Positions 7,391-31,428 of a DNA stretch of 31,428 nucleotides are shown here, piece after piece. The position numbers and the translations under genes are program-made. Source of the DNA: Candidatus Sumerlaeia bacterium (lineage in GTDB: Bacteria > Sumerlaeota > Sumerlaeia > SLMS01); contig JBBQYG010000030.1 in the NCBI GenBank assembly GCA_038208905.1, positions 1-31,428 of the forward strand, written 5' to 3'. Every line of letters starts with the position of its first letter. Position 1 is the first letter of the stretch. The notes under the pieces were generated by a model, which ran no database searches, was not told the origin of the DNA, and saw only the letters and a program-made list of their open reading frames with translations.

Positions 7391-7457
7391 GTACTGTCGA
7401 TGGCATCGACAGTACGGTTTCCTACTGTCGAAATTTGGGTGGAATTTCGACAGTAGG
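7391..7457. repeat. Two adjacent palindromes sharing TACTGTCGA arms at the Fic 3' end
   Basis: gtactgtcgatg-g-catcgacagtac (7391-7415); cctactgtcgaaatt-N7-aatttcgacagtagg (7421-7457). Confidence 0.9.
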
Positions 7458-8537
7458 GCTCGAAAGGAGCTCGATGAGCGCGTTGTTGCGAAATATCAGC
7501 GAAGGTCCACGCCCCTCCGAGGTTAGAATTCCAATCTTCTCGAGTTCCCGAAGATACAGCGATGCGGTTTGTCGCTTGGCGATGCCCGCCTCGACCAGAA
7601 CAGAGGACCGGCAGTAGGGCTGGGTAAAAAGTGTCTCCACCAGTTCCTTTGAATAGACGCGCGTTGGCAGCCCGAGGCGGCATTGGTCCAGCGTCCGATC
7701 CATCAATTCCCTGATCGCCCGGATCCTCCTTCCCGTTTTGATCGCCGTCAGCTCCACGCCGGCCAGCATGAACAGCACCCATTCTTCCCATTCCTGCCGC
7801 TCCGTGACGCCGCGCAGCAGCCTGTAGTAGTCCGGCTTGTTCTCGATAATATGGTGGCTGAGATACAAAACGGGTATGCGGAGGAGGTCGCGCTGGATCA
7901 GCATCAGAATGTTGAGAATTCGGCCGGTTCTGCCATTGCCGTCAATGAAGGGGTGGATCGCCTCGAACTGGTAGTGGCCGACTGCCATCCTAACGAGCGG
8001 GTCCAGTTGGTCGTGTCCATTGAGGAAGGCGATTAGGTTCGCCATCTTGGCATGAATAACGTCACTGCCGTGCGGCGGAGTATAGGTGATCGTCCCCGCG
8101 GCGCGGTTGCCGATATAGACCTTCTCCTCCGACCGGAGGGAGATCGGCTCGTTCCTGAGCGTTGCGCAAATCCCCCTGACAATATCCAGGTCGAGAGGTC
8201 GATCCCGCAGGGCCTCGTATCCGTATCGGAGTGCCTTCCGATAGCGGATGACCTCCTTGGTGGCGGGATCAGAGGCAAGGGTCTCGTCCAATTGGGCGCG
8301 AAAGAGGGCGTCCTCGGTGGTGACAATGTTCTCAATTTCCGAACTAAGCTTGGCCTCCTGAAGGGGTATGGAATTAATGAGGATGGCTTGGTTGGGTATC
8401 AGGTCGCCGGCGCCCTTGAGTTCGGCCAGCGCCCGGGTGGCGGAGAGGCACTTCTTGAGGACGGCACGGGTTTCCATCTCGCGGGCGGGTGGAAGCGGGG
8501 GGAGGTCGTCGTAGGGGGTCAGTGGATCGAATGTCAT
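7422..8537 (-). CDS. fic: Fic/DOC protein adenylyltransferase (class II, SoFic-like; Fic_N + Fic + C-terminal wHTH)
   Basis: 'HPFIDGNGRTGR' catalytic motif; 'SSEIEN' inhibitory motif; C-terminal 'RQTASLYLRELEKIGIL'; start taken at MTFDPLTPY. Confidence 0.95.
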   Translation of the reverse strand: MTFDPLTPYDDLPPLPPAREMETRAVLKKCLSATRALAELKGAGDLIPNQAILINSIPLQEAKLSSEIENIVTTEDALFRAQLDETLASDPATKEVIRYRKALRYGYEALRDRPLDLDIVRGICATLRNEPISLRSEEKVYIGNRAAGTITYTPPHGSDVIHAKMANLIAFLNGHDQLDPLVRMAVGHYQFEAIHPFIDGNGRTGRILNILMLIQRDLLRIPVLYLSHHIIENKPDYYRLLRGVTERQEWEEWVLFMLAGVELTAIKTGRRIRAIRELMDRTLDQCRLGLPTRVYSKELVETLFTQPYCRSSVLVEAGIAKRQTASLYLRELEKIGILTSEGRGPSLIFRNNALIELLSSPTVEIPPKFRQ

Positions 8538-8762
8538 CGGAGAGGAGCTTGGGCGATTCTGTTCCCGCCGCCCCCGTCCGCGCCACCGTTTTCCTCTCCC
8601 TTCCCCCCCCAAATGGTACTGCCCGCCGCCCTGCGTTCCACATTTGTGGGGTCTGCGCTAATTGGTGATTGACTTGCCGAAATTCCACTCCAACTGTCCC
8701 GGGCTAGTTGTCCGTGCATCCACTCAAGCGGGGGCGCGTTGGCCCCCAGGGATACCAAATCG

Positions 8763-24828: not shown

Positions 24829-27800
24829 TTGAAGGTTCGGGATCTTGCCACGGCGCTTGGCGTCTCATCCGATGAGGTGATTCGCCTTTTGGAGAATGAC
24901 CGTGCGGCGTTTCGCAAGCGCGGGTTTCGCCTGCCCACCACGCTGACCGCTGGGATGATGATCGAGGCGAAGCTCTATCGCGAGTGCCACGACCGCTATG
25001 TGGCGCCGCCCAAGGGCGCGCCGCCCGCCAAGGCACCCAGCGCGAATGGCAGCGACCTGCTGGACGATCCGAATTTCGACCCGCAGGAACTTGAAGCGAA
25101 CTTCGCGAAGGCGGTGTCGCCGGAGATCAGAGACCTGCTGACGATTCTGGGGCTGGCGGGCGGCGGCATCAAGCGCTCCGTGCTGTTCGACGCGATGCAG
25201 CGGGGATGCAAGAACCTGCCCAAGAACTTCCCCTCGCTCGCGCCCAAGGGTCCGTTCAGTTCGGCCATCGAGTTGTTGTCCAAGAACGACTTGATCATGA
25301 ATATCGACGGCAATATCGAGTCCCACCCCGAGCTGGGCGAGATCATGGCGCGGGATGCGGTGCTCGATGGCCGCGCGGAGCCGTTGATGGCGGCGCTGAC
25401 GGCCGCGTTTCAGGCGGACTCGGCCACCCCGGCGAATCGGCGCGGGGCCCCGGTGTTCTCCATGGAGGAGCGGCGCGCGCGGTTCCGGTTCGCCGCGTTT
25501 CGCGGAGAGATGGAGGAGTTCCTCAAGCTTCACGACGCCCGCGAGCGGGCCTACGATAGATTGGATTTCGAGGAGCAGGAGCGCCCCCCGGCGATCGGCA
25601 GCGTGGTGGCGTATCCCTTGGATGCGAAGTGGCTGGCGCGCTTTCCCCCTCGGGCGCGGGCGTTGGGTCTCATGGGCATCTACGCCTATGAAATCAATAA
25701 CGGCACCGGCAACGGCCACGTGTATCTGGCGCCGCTGGAGGAGAATCTTTCGGCGCTGAAGCCGCTTCCCGTATCGCCGGTCTTCCTGCTGTTGGACGCG
25801 GCGGTGCTCCACGGGCGGGCGGGGCTGGCGGAGGCCGTGGCGACGCTTCAGGGCAGGAGCGAGCCGGGCGGCATTCTCGCCGCCGGCGTTTCGCGCTTCA
25901 TCGCCATTGGCCCATCCAGGGAAGCGGGCGACCTGATGCTCAAGGGATACCGCGCCATCGACAAGGACCGCTCCCTCCGCCTCCCGCTGGAGTCGCTCCC
26001 CGATTTGCTCGTCTGGGTGGCGTTCCTGTGTTCGCTGCGCATGGACGAGCGGACCGGCAAGTCGCTGCGCAAGCTGGTAACGTTCCCCCGGCGCCAGGCC
26101 TACCTGAACGATCTGGGCGCGGATGTGGCCGCGCGGCAGCTCATGGCTGCGACGGAGAACAATGCGGCGTCGCGGCAGTTGAGGTATTTGGTGCCCCACA
26201 TGGAAAACTTCGATCCGTTCCTGTCGCTGGTTTGGTTCTCCGCCGCGTGGGCCTTCGGGCCGGAGGCGGTCAAGTCGCTGCCGCAGACCCTCCCCGCCCT
26301 GGAGAAGCTAAGCGACACCAGCCGATGGGAAGGCATCGGGCCCCAAGTGGTGGCGTTGATGGGCGACTTGGGTATCCCGGTGATGTCGCGCTTCGCGCCG
26401 GCGGCGGAGCCGTGGCACCGCGCCATCTCCATTCCCGCGCCGTGGGAAACCGCCATGCGGGAGATCGAGCGCCTGGCCGCCCCCCACGCCGCGGGCGATG
26501 GCGAGCCCGCCCCAGTCGTCGACCGCCGACTCTCGTGGGAGGTCCACGTCTCGACCGCCAACGGGTTGATCTGGGTCAATCCCCTGGAGCAGCGCGCGCT
26601 GAAGTCGGGGAAGTGGAGCAAGGGCAAGCTGTGCTCGATCGGATCGATGCTCACGGGGGATACCGCGTGGCAGACCGAACTCGACCGCCGCATCCTTGGC
26701 TCCGCCGTGAAGGACGCGTCGTACTATGGGCGCGCGGATTACATGCTCGACATCGTCAAGGCGCTGCCGCTCTTGGCCCGGCATCCCAGCCTCGTCGATC
26801 CGCGCGATGGCGAGCCCGTCTATCTGGAGATCGCCCAGCCGCAGTTGTCGGTGGTCGGCGCGGAGGGCGGCGAGCTGGAGATGCGCCTCGATCCGCTCCC
26901 GCCCGAAAAGGGGGATTTCCACATCTTGGAATTGTCCGCGGGCCGGTATCGCGTTTTCCATTTCGACAAGACGGCAAAGGGGCTGGCGGCGGTGCTGGGC
27001 GCGAAGGGCCTCCGCGTGCCGCCCGCCGCGCGGGAGCGCGTCGAGCGCACCGTCTCCGCGCTGGCGAGCACGCTGACGGTTCAGACCGACAGCCAGGCAT
27101 CCATCGCCGCGGAAGCGCGCCAGTCGGACTCCACCCCGGTCCTGCAATTGCAGCTGCGCGGCGGCAACGTTCTGGCGTCGATGCTTGTGCGCCCGCTGGG
27201 CGAGGGCGGCCCGTCGCTCCCGCCGGGCGATGGCGCCGCCCACATCACCGCGCGGCTTGAGGGAAAACTCGTCCGCACGGAACGCGATCACCCAGCGGAA
27301 TCCACGCGCGCCCAGGCATTCGTCGATTCGTGCCCGTGCCTGCTTCTGGAGCAGGAGGAAGGTTCGCTCTGGCACTGGACGCTGAGCCTGGACCACGGGC
27401 TGGAGGCGCTGAGCTGTGCGCGCGACGCGGGCGACGCCGTCCGCGTGGAGTGGCAGGGCGACCGGCGCATGAATGTCGCCGCGCGCGCCGGGATGCAGCA
27501 AGTCCGCGCGTCCGTCCATTCCGCAAGCGACTGGTTCACCCTCAGCGGCGAAGTGCGGGTGGACGAGGGGAAGGTGATGGAGCTGCAGGACTTCGTGGAT
27601 CTCCTCTCGACCGCGACCGGGCGCTTTGTGCCGCTGGGCGACGACCGCTTTCTGGAGGTGAGCGAGGAACTCCGCCGCCGCGCCGACGACTGGCGCGCGC
27701 TCAGCGAGCGGACCAAGGATGGCCTGCGCTTCCATCCACTTGCCGCCGGCGCCATCGACGCCTCCATGGAGGGGGCCGAGGAGGTGCAGGCCGACCGCAA

Positions 27801-29244
27801 GTTCCGCGACGTGCTGGCGGGCTACGCGCGCGCGCAGAAGCTCAACCCGGAGCTTCCCTCCACCATGCGCGCGGAGCTGCGGCCCTATCAGCTCGATGGC
27901 TATGTCTGGATGATGCGCCTTGCGGAGGCGCGCCTGGGCGCGTGCCTGGCCGACGACATGGGCCTGGGCAAGACGGTGCAGGCGCTGGGGATGCTGATCG
28001 CGCGCGCGCCGCTCGGCCCCGCCCTCGTGCTTGCGCCGATGTCGGTCTGCCTCAACTGGGAGTCCGAGGCCGCGCGTTTCGCGCCCACGCTGCGACTGCG
28101 CCAGCTCGTCGGCCCCGACCGCGCAAAGATCATCGCCGACGCCGGGCCGTTCGACGTGGTGGTGGTCAGCTATGGGCTGCTCCACATCGAGGCCGATGCG
28201 CTCGCCGCGAAAGTCTGGAGCACCGCGATCCTGGACGAGGCCCAGGCGATCAAGAACGTCGCCACCAAGCGGTCCCAGGCCGCCATGTCCATCCAGGCGG
28301 GATTCCGCCTCGCGATGAGCGGCACGCCGGTGGAGAACCATCTGGGCGAGCTGTGGAACCTCTTCCGATTCATCAACCCCGGGCTGCTCGGTTCACAGGA
28401 ACGCTTCAACGCGCGCTTCGCCGTACCCATCGAGCGCGATCACGACCGCATGGCGATGGCGCGCCTGCGTCGGCTGGTGTCGCCGTTCCTCCTGCGCCGG
28501 ACAAAGCAGGCGGTGCTGGAGGACCTGCCGCCGCGCACGGAGATCACGCTGAAGGTGGAGCCCGACGCGGAGGAGATGGCCTTCTACGAGTCGCTGCGCC
28601 GCAAGGCGATGGAAACGCTCACCAAGCCCGAGGGCGCCCCCACGGAACAGCGCATCCGCATCCTGGCGGAGCTGATGAAGCTGCGCCGCGCCTGCTGCAA
28701 TCCGGAGCTTGTCGCCCCCGGCGCGGGCCTTCCGTCGTCCAAGCTCGGCGAGTTCACGCGCATCGTGGAGGAGCTTCGCGACAACCGCCACAAGGCCCTC
28801 GTCTTCAGCCAGTTCGTGGATCACCTGACGATCCTGCGCGCGCGGCTGGACAAGCTGGGCATCAAGTACCAGTACCTCGATGGCTCCACGCCCCAGGAGG
28901 AACGCAAGCGCCGCGTGGACGCCTTTCAGGGCGGCGAGGGCGACTTCTTCCTGATCAGCCTGCGCGCCGGCGGAACGGGCCTCAACCTGACCGCCGCCGA
29001 CTATGTCATCCACATGGACCCGTGGTGGAACCCCGCCGTGGAGGACCAGGCATCCGACCGCGCCCACCGCATCGGCCAGAACCGCCCCGTCACCATCTAC
29101 CGCATCATCCTCAAGGGCACCGTCGAGGAAAAGATCGTCGCGCTCCACCGCGAAAAACGCGACTTGGCGGAGGGCCTCCTCGAAGGCGCCGAGGGCGGCG
29201 TGAGGATGAGCGTGTCGGAGCTGCTGTCATTGATGGAAAAGTAG
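24829..29244 (+). CDS. SNF2-family ATP-dependent helicase/translocase with an IF2-N-like N-terminal segment
   Basis: 'LADDMGLGKT', 'DEAQAIKN', 'SGTPVENHLGELW', 'LVFSQF', 'SLRAGGTGLNL', 'DPWWNP...RAHRIGQ'; TTG start with GAGGGG RBS. Confidence 0.95.
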   Translation: MKVRDLATALGVSSDEVIRLLENDRAAFRKRGFRLPTTLTAGMMIEAKLYRECHDRYVAPPKGAPPAKAPSANGSDLLDDPNFDPQELEANFAKAVSPEIRDLLTILGLAGGGIKRSVLFDAMQRGCKNLPKNFPSLAPKGPFSSAIELLSKNDLIMNIDGNIESHPELGEIMARDAVLDGRAEPLMAALTAAFQADSATPANRRGAPVFSMEERRARFRFAAFRGEMEEFLKLHDARERAYDRLDFEEQERPPAIGSVVAYPLDAKWLARFPPRARALGLMGIYAYEINNGTGNGHVYLAPLEENLSALKPLPVSPVFLLLDAAVLHGRAGLAEAVATLQGRSEPGGILAAGVSRFIAIGPSREAGDLMLKGYRAIDKDRSLRLPLESLPDLLVWVAFLCSLRMDERTGKSLRKLVTFPRRQAYLNDLGADVAARQLMAATENNAASRQLRYLVPHMENFDPFLSLVWFSAAWAFGPEAVKSLPQTLPALEKLSDTSRWEGIGPQVVALMGDLGIPVMSRFAPAAEPWHRAISIPAPWETAMREIERLAAPHAAGDGEPAPVVDRRLSWEVHVSTANGLIWVNPLEQRALKSGKWSKGKLCSIGSMLTGDTAWQTELDRRILGSAVKDASYYGRADYMLDIVKALPLLARHPSLVDPRDGEPVYLEIAQPQLSVVGAEGGELEMRLDPLPPEKGDFHILELSAGRYRVFHFDKTAKGLAAVLGAKGLRVPPAARERVERTVSALASTLTVQTDSQASIAAEARQSDSTPVLQLQLRGGNVLASMLVRPLGEGGPSLPPGDGAAHITARLEGKLVRTERDHPAESTRAQAFVDSCPCLLLEQEEGSLWHWTLSLDHGLEALSCARDAGDAVRVEWQGDRRMNVAARAGMQQVRASVHSASDWFTLSGEVRVDEGKVMELQDFVDLLSTATGRFVPLGDDRFLEVSEELRRRADDWRALSERTKDGLRFHPLAAGAIDASMEGAEEVQADRKFRDVLAGYARAQKLNPELPSTMRAELRPYQLDGYVWMMRLAEARLGACLADDMGLGKTVQALGMLIARAPLGPALVLAPMSVCLNWESEAARFAPTLRLRQLVGPDRAKIIADAGPFDVVVVSYGLLHIEADALAAKVWSTAILDEAQAIKNVATKRSQAAMSIQAGFRLAMSGTPVENHLGELWNLFRFINPGLLGSQERFNARFAVPIERDHDRMAMARLRRLVSPFLLRRTKQAVLEDLPPRTEITLKVEPDAEEMAFYESLRRKAMETLTKPEGAPTEQRIRILAELMKLRRACCNPELVAPGAGLPSSKLGEFTRIVEELRDNRHKALVFSQFVDHLTILRARLDKLGIKYQYLDGSTPQEERKRRVDAFQGGEGDFFLISLRAGGTGLNLTAADYVIHMDPWWNPAVEDQASDRAHRIGQNRPVTIYRIILKGTVEEKIVALHREKRDLAEGLLEGAEGGVRMSVSELLSLMEK

Positions 29245-29256
29245 GGTGGGGCGAAG

Positions 29257-29292
29257 CTACTAATTTACTACTAATTCCTTCAGAATTAGTAG
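29257..29292. repeat. 36-bp AT-rich motif downstream of Fic gene 2 (copy 1)
   Basis: ctactaattta-ctactaatt-ccttcag-aattagtag. Confidence 0.92.
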
Positions 29293-29350
29293 CGCGGTTT
29301 CTCAAATGCCATTCTTCGCCAATATTTCGCCAATTTGAGGCTTCGGAAGA

Positions 29351-30697
29351 CTATGTCTCCAATTCCTTTTCAAGTTGGAGCATTCGGTCCGCAAGATCGT
29401 TGGGGGCGATGAATACAAAGCGATTTCCGGTTTTTCGCTTCTCCAAGAGGTTCTTGTCCTCCAGTTCGAGGATGTCGGCCCGTGCCGTCTGATACACCAC
29501 GCCGTGGCTCTTCTTGTGGCTTTCGAACGTGTACTGCCCACCAGGGTGCTTGAGAGCGTTCAGCAGGAGCTGCATCTGGCGATGATTGAAGAGGGACAAA
29601 GACCGAATCCTCGATTCTACATCATGTAGCTCCTTGGTCTTGCGCGTGATATAGGCATGAAGCTGGACGATCGCCCGGCGAATCACCTTCATCTGCGCGA
29701 TCAGGAAATAGGTCAGATCATTGTCGTCGGTTTCCGTGTGGAGGAAGGAGCGCCCATACTCCGAGGGCGCCTTTCTCAGGATGCTCGAAATGGAGATGAA
29801 CTCGAACAGCCAGTAGCCGTTTCGCAGCATCGCCCAATAGAACAGGGCGCGCGCGGTGCGCCCGTTCCCGTCCACGAATGGATGATCATAGGCGAGCCAG
29901 AAGTGCAGGATGATCGCCCGCACCGCCGGATGGACAAAGTAGTCGGGCGACTCGCCGTTGGCGAAGGCACACATGGCCTTCATTCGTTCCGGCAGTTCCG
30001 CGGCGGCGGGTGGCTCGTGGAATACTTGCCCCTCATTGTCCATGACCGCCAGCTTTAGGCTGGCATCGCGAAAGCAGCCAGCGGCCTTGGGGTCTTCCAG
30101 AGTCTCCTTGGTCACCATGGCGTGGATCTGGAACAGCAGCTCCGGGGTGAGCGGGGCCGATCTTAGCTCGCGGATCCTCTGCATGGTCGCATAGTTGTTC
30201 AGGATCATCTGCTCGCTGGTGTCCCGCGGCTTACGCCCTGTCCGGATCATCTCCTTGGCGACTTCGCGCGTTGTCACGGCGCCCTCAAGCTGGCTGGAGG
30301 TGATTGCCTCCTCCATAAGCGAACTGACGATGTACTGGTCCCGGGTCTGTGGGTTCGTGATGGGGGCGGCCACACTCACAAGGCCGCCAGCGCCCATGTC
30401 GATCTGGTGCAACCCCTCGATCGCCGATCCCGGGACCGCGAACTTGAAGGGCTGTCCGACCTTGTCCTTGAGGCCGATGGGCCGGAGAGCGGGGAGCCGT
30501 GCCAGTTTGATGGCGAGCCACCACGCAGGGTGCGTGATCCCCTCGGGCGCTGGATGTCGCCGCAGGTCATCCCAGTGCAAGTACCTTTCATCCCGACCCA
30601 ATTTGCCTACCTGCGGACCAAAGACCAGAAGTCTTTCGGGGTCGGTCAACTCGCCAAGGACTTCGCTCAAAACGGGGGGTGGCTCTGGGACGCGCAT
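29351..30697 (-). CDS. fic: Fic family protein (class II) with C-terminal wHTH
   Basis: 'HPFVDGNGRTAR', inhibitory 'SSQLEG', C-terminal 'YQTARADILELEDKNLL'. Confidence 0.95.
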   Translation of the reverse strand: MRVPEPPPVLSEVLGELTDPERLLVFGPQVGKLGRDERYLHWDDLRRHPAPEGITHPAWWLAIKLARLPALRPIGLKDKVGQPFKFAVPGSAIEGLHQIDMGAGGLVSVAAPITNPQTRDQYIVSSLMEEAITSSQLEGAVTTREVAKEMIRTGRKPRDTSEQMILNNYATMQRIRELRSAPLTPELLFQIHAMVTKETLEDPKAAGCFRDASLKLAVMDNEGQVFHEPPAAAELPERMKAMCAFANGESPDYFVHPAVRAIILHFWLAYDHPFVDGNGRTARALFYWAMLRNGYWLFEFISISSILRKAPSEYGRSFLHTETDDNDLTYFLIAQMKVIRRAIVQLHAYITRKTKELHDVESRIRSLSLFNHRQMQLLLNALKHPGGQYTFESHKKSHGVVYQTARADILELEDKNLLEKRKTGNRFVFIAPNDLADRMLQLEKELET

Positions 30698-30704
30698 GGG
30701 TCGC

Positions 30705-30740
30705 CTACCAATTTACTACTAATTTACTGCTAATTAGTAG
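30705..30740. repeat. 36-bp AT-rich motif upstream of Fic gene 2 (copy 2), same orientation as copy 1
   Basis: ctaccaattta-ctactaatt-tactgct-aattagtag; also reads as three tandem 11-mers. Confidence 0.92.
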
Positions 30741-30750
30741 TTGGTGTCAA
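30721..30750 (-). promoter_or_regulatory. Sigma70-type promoter of Fic gene 2, overlapped by the palindromic motif
   Basis: Minus strand TTGACA-N18-TAAATT, 23 nt upstream of the ATG. Confidence 0.7.
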
Positions 30751-30831
30751 GTGCGATCCTCAAGCCTCGGTTGGCCCGGCCTGCGCTGGCACAAACCTTG
30801 GTCAATTCGCCTCCCGAAGGAGTATCCACCC

Positions 30832-31428
30832 ATGTTTTTGCGTCAGATTGCCGTGTTGCTCGCCCTTGCTGTGCCGTTTCTGCTGGTCGGCTGTCTGCAC
30901 TCGCCCGGAGGCGGGAGGCTGCCGCCGGCATGGCAGATCGTGCCGGAGCCCATCGGAGACGCGCCGCTCCTCCGCTTCGGGTTCCCTCCCCCGTTGGAGC
31001 ACTACGGTGGCACCGCTTCGTCGCTGCGGGGCGAGTTGCGCCTGGGTGCCGGAGGCGTCCTCGCGGGAAGCTCCGGCTATGTGGAGGTCGCCGCCAGCGA
31101 GCTCGACATGGGGGAGAAGTATCTGACAATGACCATGCTGGACGAGTTGCTTGCGGCGGAGAATCCGGTCGCGAGGTTCGACCTGCGCGAGGTGTCGGGC
31201 GTCGACGCAACGCTGCCACTGCGCCCCGGGGAGGAACGCGCCTTCGCCGCGCGGGGCGATTTCTCCATGAAGGGAATCACCATTCCCGCCGCCGTGGCGG
31301 CGACGGTGCTTCCCACCACCGGTCCCGACGGGCAACCGCGGCTGGTGGCCCGCGTCACCTTTGCGGTGCGACTCAAGGAGTCTTTCAACATCGACGGCCC
31401 GGTGGGCCCGCTCCCCGCGCGCGATACG
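30832..31428 (+). CDS. YceI-like lipoprotein, truncated by the window end (absent from the ORF track)
   Basis: AAGGAG RBS; MFLRQIAVLLALAVPFLLVGC lipobox; 'GYVEVAASELDMGE...ARF...GDFSMKGITIP...F' YceI barrel pattern; frame open to the end. Confidence 0.75.
   Translation, partial: MFLRQIAVLLALAVPFLLVGCLHSPGGGRLPPAWQIVPEPIGDAPLLRFGFPPPLEHYGGTASSLRGELRLGAGGVLAGSSGYVEVAASELDMGEKYLTMTMLDELLAAENPVARFDLREVSGVDATLPLRPGEERAFAARGDFSMKGITIPAAVAATVLPTTGPDGQPRLVARVTFAVRLKESFNIDGPVGPLPARDT

Follow-up and report, generated by a model that had tools for sequence, protein, structure and literature searches.

Fic enzymes that bind DNA and the paired sites of the window

The closest described counterparts of the gene studied here are Fic enzymes carrying a helix-turn-helix (HTH) domain. 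CccR of Yersinia pseudotuberculosis, a type VI secretion system effector of 380 amino acids, is a class II Fic protein with the inhibitory motif S59ARIEG and a C-terminal HTH domain, and the passages of the paper used here describe it as a dimer that represses its own gene via palindromes near the -35 and -10 elements (PMC9755527). SoFic from Shewanella oneidensis was reported to bind, as a dimer, the 100 bp immediately upstream of the gene encoding it (bioRxiv 10.64898/2026.07.09.737422), and SoFic is listed as a single-gene anti-phage system in an excerpt of a further paper (PMC12249575) and in PADLOC. For CbFic2 of Coxiella burnetii, also a Fic-HTH enzyme, DNA binding was described in the excerpted source to drive dimer formation and to switch the enzyme from AMPylase to deAMPylase (PMC10628234). 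We analyzed a 31,428-bp stretch of DNA, referred to as the window, from a Candidatus Sumerlaeia bacterium (GCA_038208905.1, contig JBBQYG010000030.1), in which a class II Fic gene encoding 448 amino acids (29351-30697, minus strand) lies between two copies of a 36-bp site with an AT-rich palindrome.

On balance, we favor the reading that both sites are operators of the Fic winged-helix protein, the upstream copy serving self-repression and the downstream copy lying at the border of the unit. The winged-helix domain, most likely acting as a dimer, would bind both sites, and protein on the upstream copy (site B) would cover the promoter spacer and the -10 element and shut off its own transcription. 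It is very likely that binding at site B represses the Fic gene, as in CccR and as suggested for SoFic; because self-repression by CccR and promoter binding by SoFic have been published, the upstream copy would be a further case of a known type of control. The downstream copy (site A) would be an additional operator at the distal end of a one-gene cassette that was acquired horizontally. The sequence, its conservation, its co-variation with the protein, and the predicted fold are observed here, whereas binding, repression, and every role considered below for site A are inferred.

The window protein and CccR are alike in being class II Fic enzymes with an N-terminal S-x3-E-G inhibitory motif, a C-terminal HTH domain, and promoter palindromes. 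In the passages of PMC9755527 used here, the CccR site consists of 10-bp inverted repeats 26 bp apart, whereas each site of the window has a 9-N7-9 palindrome and a third half-site; CccR is without the approximately 110-amino-acid N-terminal region of the window protein, and no downstream site is described in these passages. SoFic, as far as the excerpts cover it, is alike in combining a Fic domain with a winged helix, in binding upstream of its own gene, and in acting as a single gene, and it is the best structural match. In the excerpt on SoFic of E. coli, a small downstream antitoxin gene (AS1) is described, whereas only 58 bp separate the Fic stop codon from site A in the window. CbFic2 differs in that its DNA binding is largely non-specific, its target is a host histone, and no operator is defined in the excerpted passages (PMC10628234).

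Site A was located at 29257-29292 (+ orientation), with an 11-bp half-site unit at 29257-29267 followed by the palindrome CTACTAATT-CCTTCAG-AATTAGTAG at 29268-29292. Site B was located at 30705-30740, also in + orientation, with the half-site unit at 30705-30715 and the palindrome CTACTAATT-TACTGCT-AATTAGTAG at 30716-30740. Each site consists of the unit CTACYAATTTA and a perfect palindrome CTACTAATT-N7-AATTAGTAG, and the first-pass annotation of this DNA, which had reported the paired sites in equal orientation with 28 of 29 positions identical outside the spacer, was right in both respects. Aligned over 36 positions, the copies show seven differences, one outside the 7-bp spacer and six within it; the arms are identical at 18/18 positions and the spacers at 1/7. 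The same annotation had called the entire 36 bp palindromic, which holds for 25 bp; the remaining 11 bp form a third half-site, a direct repeat placed one helical turn from the palindrome. When up to three mismatches were allowed, the palindrome pattern gave exactly two matches in the 31.4-kb window, with zero mismatches each, and none were expected from 100 shuffles. The 11-mer, allowing up to two mismatches, matched seven times compared with a shuffle mean of 1.0, and six of the seven matches were inside sites A and B.

Site A sits between two convergent stop codons, starting, as had been noted, 12 bp past the stop codon of an SNF2-family helicase gene (29242-29244) and ending 58 bp from the Fic stop codon. 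The half-site of B ends 7 bp before the Fic ATG, and the distance from A to B is 1448 bp. The lower GC content claimed for the unit was reproduced: GC was 0.597 and GC at third codon positions 0.771 in the Fic gene, compared with 0.680 and 0.882 in the SNF2 gene, and the drop was abrupt, starting at approximately 29250, at site A. As a separate observation, the 58 bp between the Fic stop codon and site A hold two tandem 11-bp units, TTCGCCAATAT and TTCGCCAATTT (29315-29336), which show a loose likeness to the half-site unit and the same 11-bp phasing; these may be half-sites that have decayed, or the likeness may be due to chance.

A putative sigma-70-like promoter of the Fic gene was recognized by consensus matching at 30721-30750 on the minus strand (-35 TTGACA, 30750-30745; -10 TAAATT, 30726-30721). 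TTGACA-N18-TAAATT scored 10/12 and was the only promoter-like match in 29100-30950; no promoter match was found beside site A in this region. The overlap of this promoter with the upstream copy, already proposed from the first reading, was borne out, and the palindrome of site B occupies the promoter spacer and the -10 element, which is the overlap with the enzyme's own promoter that characterizes CccR-type regulation.

The Fic protein and its probable conserved operator

The Fic protein was assigned from its translation, the Pfam Fic family, the PADLOC SoFic model, and a structure model. The active-site motif HPFVDGNGRTAR at residues 272-283 (H272-R283) fits HxFx(D/E)GNGRxxR, and among 35 aligned family members, H272, P273, F274, and G277-R283 were invariant and D276 nearly so. 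The inhibitory motif S134-SQL-E138-G139 lies N-terminal to the Fic core in the same chain and fits (S/T)xxxE(G/N), with its residues invariant. Pfam detected the Fic core only (E = 3.9e-19): Fic_N and SoFic-like_C were not matched, and the N-terminal 125 and C-terminal 99 amino acids, scanned separately, had no Pfam match. The PADLOC SoFic model matched residues 109-431 (E = 2e-41). Sequence similarity to SoFic was low, with 41.4 bits for the NCBIfam SoFic equivalog model against a cut-off of 550. Because this score is far below the cut-off and Pfam finds the Fic core only, the 448-amino-acid family is best treated as a separate subfamily and not as SoFic orthologs. The subfamily is very large and uniform, with at least 8000 homologs; the best 120 of these were 63-97% identical and mostly exactly 448 amino acids long, and P0004 was 97% identical.

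An AlphaFold model built from 35 sequences had a mean predicted local distance difference test (pLDDT) score of 74.4 and reached a pLDDT of 80-93 in the C-terminal part. The helices at 372-383, 391-398, and 402-414 and the strands at 419-423 and 426-430 (hairpin 419-430) form a predicted winged helix. The best Foldseek matches were SoFic (3zec and 3eqx), a Fic protein of Mycobacterium marinum, Coxiella Fic2, and 7xux, with E values of approximately 1e-9 to 1e-10 over approximately 360 columns. With the Fic and inhibitory motifs present, a winged helix predicted at the C-terminus, and SoFic-type proteins as the best structural matches, the original naming of the product as a Fic protein with a winged HTH domain is supported. 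A homodimer model scored 0.52 compared with 0.00 for the best control; of 30 proteins solved as same-chain pairs, 20 attained this mark, as did 1 of 23 solved as single chains. At least 72% of contacts were common to the runs, with a partner pLDDT of at least 80. The modeled interface is formed by helix 88-105 of the N-terminal domain and residues 253-257. Since the related dimers of SoFic and CccR have already been solved, the pass may reflect likeness to them and is not taken as proof. The Fic protein most likely binds DNA as a dimer.

A pattern-based genome scan for the Fic family matched 599 stretches, 586 of which encode relatives. The best 80 of the 586 were used as homolog loci (L-numbers below); 79 had a complete gene, and protein identity was 48-67%. 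These loci span Verrucomicrobiota, Planctomycetota, Chlamydiota, Lentisphaerae, Cyanobacteria, Binatia, Gemmatimonadota, Rhodothermales, Methylobacter, and others. An operator match was defined as at least 14/18 positions of the window palindrome, and the upstream zone as the 140 bp before the start codon. In this zone, 78 operator matches were found, distributed over 54 of the 79 loci (7.1 per kb), whereas the Fic coding sequences (106 kb) had 0 and the other flanking DNA (717 kb) had 4 (0.006 per kb). The four exceptions fell in L034 and L047. At least one of the L047 matches belongs to a second promoter-like copy approximately 500 bp upstream of the real one (L047:5470-5560), and those in L034 probably lie in the true upstream region because the gene appears broken near its 5' end.

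The conservation extended to the architecture of the site. Generic 9-N7-9 palindromes were enriched 17-fold upstream of the homologs, and in many other loci the 9-N7-9 geometry was kept with a different half-site, for example, CTACCAATT, CTATCAATT, CTCCTAATT, GTGCTAATT, and ATTCTAATT. The 36-bp arrangement was common to the homologs, with a third half-site 11 bp from the palindrome that abuts the start codon in many loci. Two upstream palindromes were present in 23 loci, and in 15 of these their starts were 43-49 bp apart. At greater distances, the trace was lost. A DNA search of the 1.6-kb unit against plasmids gave no match, and searches in protein mode recovered only distant relatives (16 plasmid records with less than 40% identity and 3 phage records). 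By eye, no recognizable palindrome was seen upstream or downstream in one Vibrio plasmid locus; hence, the operator is not traceable at approximately 38% protein identity.

Clustering of the 657 reading frames that flank the Fic gene in the window and the 80 loci showed shared neighbors only within closely related genomes, such as six Pirellulales loci. The idea of a conserved partner was rejected, as no neighbor family accompanies the Fic gene beyond close relatives, and because no flanking gene family travels with the gene, the Fic protein is the sole constant candidate for binding the site.

A single residue of the Fic protein also changed with the site. Residue 403, the second residue of the third winged-helix helix, located between invariant Y402 and T404-A405-R406, had one of the highest association scores of all alignment columns and separated the half-site classes most cleanly. 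Among loci typed automatically, xxACT half-sites went with Q or E (36/36), xxACC with D (6/6), and xxATC with A or G (7/7). On a tree built without the C-terminal domain, the class with T at position 4 arose in at least six separate places, and all six independent pairs shifted residue 403 in the same direction (p = 0.031); for the ACC/D class, three of four independent pairs agreed and one was unchanged. This co-variation points indirectly to the Fic protein as the reader of the site. Taken with the conservation of the site upstream of homologs, it supports the preference, expressed in the first-pass annotation, for operators over attL/attR attachment (att) sites, and the identification of the palindrome as the conserved operator of this Fic subfamily is strongly supported by these comparisons.

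Mobility of the Fic gene

To survey repeats flanking the Fic gene, the 600 bp upstream were compared with the 1000 bp downstream for the window and 78 homologs, 79 loci in all (L026 and L072 were dropped owing to missing flanks). Direct repeats with a score of at least 16 were observed in 10 of the 79 loci and inverted repeats in none (sign test p = 0.002). Of 83 control genes comparable in size and taken from the same DNA, four reached this score, with a top score of 31; the excess was weak at score 16 (10/79 vs. 4/83, p = 0.096), and at a score of at least 36, seven of the 79 Fic loci compared with none of the 83 controls were retained (p = 0.006). Except in L040, the bracketed units were 1.5-2.4 kb long and held the Fic gene alone.

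In seven loci (L006, L012, L016, L031, L056, L063, and L070), the repeats were 26-113 bp long. The repeat of L012 is the last 28 bases of a tRNA-Arg gene; that of L063 covers 79 bp of the clpB 3' end, with all three mismatches synonymous and each copy followed by its own tail; and that of L031 consists of the last 20 codons of a sugar-transporter gene of the major facilitator superfamily (MFS), with two of three mismatches synonymous. By eye, the L056 repeat is a MutS-like C-terminal tail, and the L070 repeat contains fragments resembling insertion sequence (IS)-type transposase ends; the repeats in L006 and L016 are gene ends with terminators. For L020 and the window, the operator itself forms the repeat. 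In L040 (Gemmatimonadaceae), a 684-bp direct repeat with 91% identity brackets approximately 4.6 kb including the Fic gene (L040:2839-8186); this locus has three copies of the operator region and two further Fic_N/Fic genes downstream, and the long repeat includes an operator copy. No shared motif was seen by eye at the repeat junctions. The synonymous-only differences suggest that the repeat copies evolved as coding sequences in different lineages, and the pattern fits insertion-duplication, in which a circle that carries part of a gene from an earlier host is integrated. Short, sharply bounded repeats would fit a site-specific enzyme equally well.

Evidence for transfer was also obtained from pairs of loci. 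L071 (Hahellaceae) and L074 (Oleiphilus) share 92.7% DNA identity solely over a segment that begins 111 bp ahead of the start codon and ends 18 bp past the stop codon (approximately L071:5890-7368 and L074:3500-4978), with unrelated flanks, while other close pairs of loci shared only approximately 40-80 bp upstream. A tRNA gene was found within 450 bp of the Fic gene in 6 of the 80 loci. Among the 16 loci that were bracketed by repeats or adjacent to a tRNA gene, a Phage_integrase gene occurred within 4.5 kb in two (L070 and L078), and the other flanks held mostly housekeeping genes. Comparison of 22 different reading frames of the window with Pfam yielded no recombinase family, and nine of the 22 were without any Pfam match. 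Judged from these comparisons, the Fic gene clearly moves between genomes as a one-gene cassette, and by its sequence, the cassette of the window is foreign and horizontally acquired.

In six loci from Pirellulales and other Planctomycetota (L018, L019, L021, L029, L044, and L054), the neighbors of the Fic gene were conserved on both sides. In that lineage, the gene is vertically inherited and not moving.

Integrase-less elements with att-type repeats are known, and insertion-duplication can proceed via a single crossover of a circle. The Fic family resembles such elements in that members are bracketed by direct repeats of tRNA genes or the 3' ends of host genes; it differs in the 1.5-2.4-kb one-gene unit, the variable ends, and, in the window, a repeat that is the operator and not a host sequence. 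Our literature search found no paper linking the Fic family with mobile cassettes flanked by direct repeats.

The downstream copy, its rival explanations, and implications

Within 300 bp downstream of the Fic gene, an operator-like site was present in only three of the 79 homologs (L020, L065, and L078); a downstream copy is thus rare. In L020, a recent 42-bp duplicate of the distal operator (95% identical, same spacer) lies 93 bp past the Fic stop codon and reaches to within 43 bp of the stop codon of a GDSL-lipase gene in convergent orientation. In L078, the unit is a diverged operator located 58 bp past the stop codon. Several observations count against our reading of the paired sites or of the cassette. 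The three nearest relatives (L001, L006, and L008) have a single upstream operator and none downstream. The site after the L065 gene (L065:7430-7470) is a complete three-half-site unit with TTGAC, and its half-sites are unlike those of the L065 operator; this, together with the count of 3/79, indicates that the downstream copy is not part of the family design. The Fic promoter is a consensus match, and the promoters of the host may differ from the consensus. The tree behind the residue 403 pairs was built with FastTree and has 25 of 76 inner branches unsupported, and the half-site classes of 15 loci were assigned by eye, although the automatically typed subset gave the same result. The excess of direct repeats was weak at the lower score, as given above, and the repeats may have several causes because they differ in kind. 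A downstream operator is neither required nor typical in the family.

Site A nevertheless has the marks of a binding site. That six of the seven mismatches between A and B fall inside the 7-bp spacer has a probability of 2.4e-5 under an even spread. The same tendency is seen in the 23 homolog loci that have two operators upstream, with arms 79% and spacers 40% identical, and in the operator pairs of L014, L020, and L041, the arms were identical at 18/18 positions and the spacers at 2-3/7. Because its arms are perfect and its spacer has diverged as in these pairs, site A looks like a site kept for protein binding, neither a fresh nor a decaying duplicate. It is probably still bound by the protein, and selection for that binding is a likely reason why it has remained intact. 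An origin of site A from tandem Fic arrays was considered and rejected, as no second close copy was found in any locus; the Fic paralogs near the loci are distant ones, in the window, L040, and L043.

The first-pass annotation had proposed autoregulation by DNA looping around the whole gene. Autoregulation is well supported at site B, and looping found less support. In this reading, protein at A and B would form a 1.45-kb loop around its own gene, and the loop would be needed for tight repression. In its favor, the usual 43-49-bp spacing in the two-operator loci suggests cooperative pairs, and the window has one operator upstream and one downstream, both perfect and with spacers diverged like those of working pairs. 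Auxiliary operators beyond the promoter are known from lac O2 and gal OI, which lie 50-400 bp away and act through tetramers or dimer-dimer contacts. They are alike in that a second operator of the same specificity is found past the promoter, within the regulated gene or behind it; the window differs in its spacing of 1448 bp and in that the second operator is not conserved among relatives. In L020, the downstream operator comes on top of two upstream ones, nothing points to tetramers of the protein (the modeling covered a dimer), and our literature search found no paper joining Fic, AMPylation, and DNA looping. With the downstream site so rare and absent from the nearest relatives, a loop is unlikely.

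Site A could also be a relic left over from an earlier or neighboring Fic cassette, with no present function. Stray copies of operators or promoters do occur near family members, as in L065 (the downstream unit with TTGAC), L047, and L040. Decay would be expected to spread evenly over such a relic, yet the arms and the third half-site are perfect and the changes are concentrated in the spacer, which makes this origin improbable.

The first-pass annotation had offered, as a second possibility, a recombinase-less mobile cassette. The one-gene mobility and the direct repeats in 10/79 loci are in its favor; the palindrome itself is mostly not the repeat, and because the repeats in most bracketed loci are host sequences, it is not a general recombination site. 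For the window, the proposal would mean that the cassette excises and integrates through sites A and B as att-like ends, with a recombinase supplied in trans or with the Fic protein itself as the enzyme. The absence of a recombinase family in the window reading frames could be accommodated by supply in trans, and the unit of L020, bracketed by its fresh operator duplicate, and that of L078, with its diverged downstream copy, resemble the arrangement in the window. The spacers of A and B, however, agree at only 1/7 positions, which is incompatible with the identical overlap required for strand exchange by tyrosine recombinases. Seven of the ten bracketed loci have non-operator repeats (ends of tRNA, ClpB, MFS, and MutS genes, terminators, and IS-type fragments), the long L040 repeat merely includes an operator copy, and cassette ends differ between loci. 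Sites at both ends of related elements were found in 3/79 loci, and Phage_integrase is near in only 2/16. The att-site reading of the palindrome is accordingly unlikely, and for the window we would give it slightly less credence than a relic.

It is highly improbable that the sites are terminator hairpins, RNA elements, or sites of another regulator: site A does lie between convergent genes where no other terminator-like hairpin was found, and the palindrome can be folded as a 10-12-bp stem, but the stem is AU-rich without a proper T-run, the fold z-scores are -0.79 (+ strand) and -2.06 (- strand), the homolog sites precede the start codon rather than follow the gene, residue 403 co-varies with the half-site, and no other gene co-occurs. 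A terminator at site A was tried as a candidate and was not convincing, given the weak z-scores and the lack of a terminator-like site between the convergent genes.

For the preferred reading, in which site A is an additional operator of the Fic protein, three roles are proposed: looping-aided repression, a roadblock to transcription from the SNF2 gene, or the docking of the enzyme as a DNA-bound dimer. The CbFic2 switch suggests, by analogy, a non-transcriptional use for extra binding sites. Site A may have arisen from insertions or duplications of the repeat-forming kind observed next to other members of the family, although we consider this somewhat less than an even chance. More speculatively, and with little expectation that all of it holds, the Fic-winged-helix gene and its operator may constitute a self-silencing mobile unit of 1.5-2.4 kb without a recombinase gene of its own that crosses phyla. 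Its circular form would insert by insertion-duplication at the 3' ends of host genes and tRNA genes, leaving direct repeats. Where the repeat is the operator (window, L020, and L078), the bound protein might synapse the ends or hold the enzyme in a harmless dimer, and the site would act as operator, antidote, and border.

The SNF2-family helicase (1471 amino acids; 24829-29244, plus strand) is convergent to the Fic gene, and its C-terminal half matches PADLOC models of DpdE (E = 3.6e-183) and ZorD; no other defense-system genes were seen in the window. On the other side, a YceI-like lipoprotein gene starts at 30832 and is divergent from the Fic gene. A second Fic-winged-helix gene (7422-8540, minus strand) matches Pfam Fic_N, Fic, and SoFic-like_C, and its product is 24% identical to the first. 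Its last 12 codons and stop codon run through a perfect palindrome, CCTACTGTCGAAATT-N7-AATTTCGACAGTAGG (7421-7457), followed by a second palindrome, GTACTGTCGA-N5-TCGACAGTAC, approximately 58 bp upstream of a pseudouridine-synthase gene (site region 7391-7457). The half-site TACTGTCGA occurs in the window only at these four places, and none is upstream of the second Fic gene.

Self-repression by Fic-HTH enzymes has so far been known from two or three model proteins. For the 448-amino-acid subfamily, the operator can be read from genomes: three half-sites, often paired approximately 47 bp apart, with one helix residue tracking the bases. The pairing of residue 403 with the half-site offers a candidate recognition code and a way to predict the targets of a class of defense or toxin enzymes whose regulation is little understood. 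Control from upstream is already known in kind. Having an operator past the gene as well, at the border of the cassette, is rare, and if the downstream operator is functional, this would be the first Fic enzyme to use a site beyond its promoter. The more interesting lead is the repeat-bracketed one-gene cassette seen across the family. In many phyla, a single gene with its own switch is found between housekeeping genes, in some cases flanked by duplicated ends of host genes. Of the 16 loci that are repeat-bracketed or tRNA-adjacent, 14 have no integrase gene nearby, and if one mechanism lies behind the repeat brackets, it would represent a simple and overlooked route of gene insertion.

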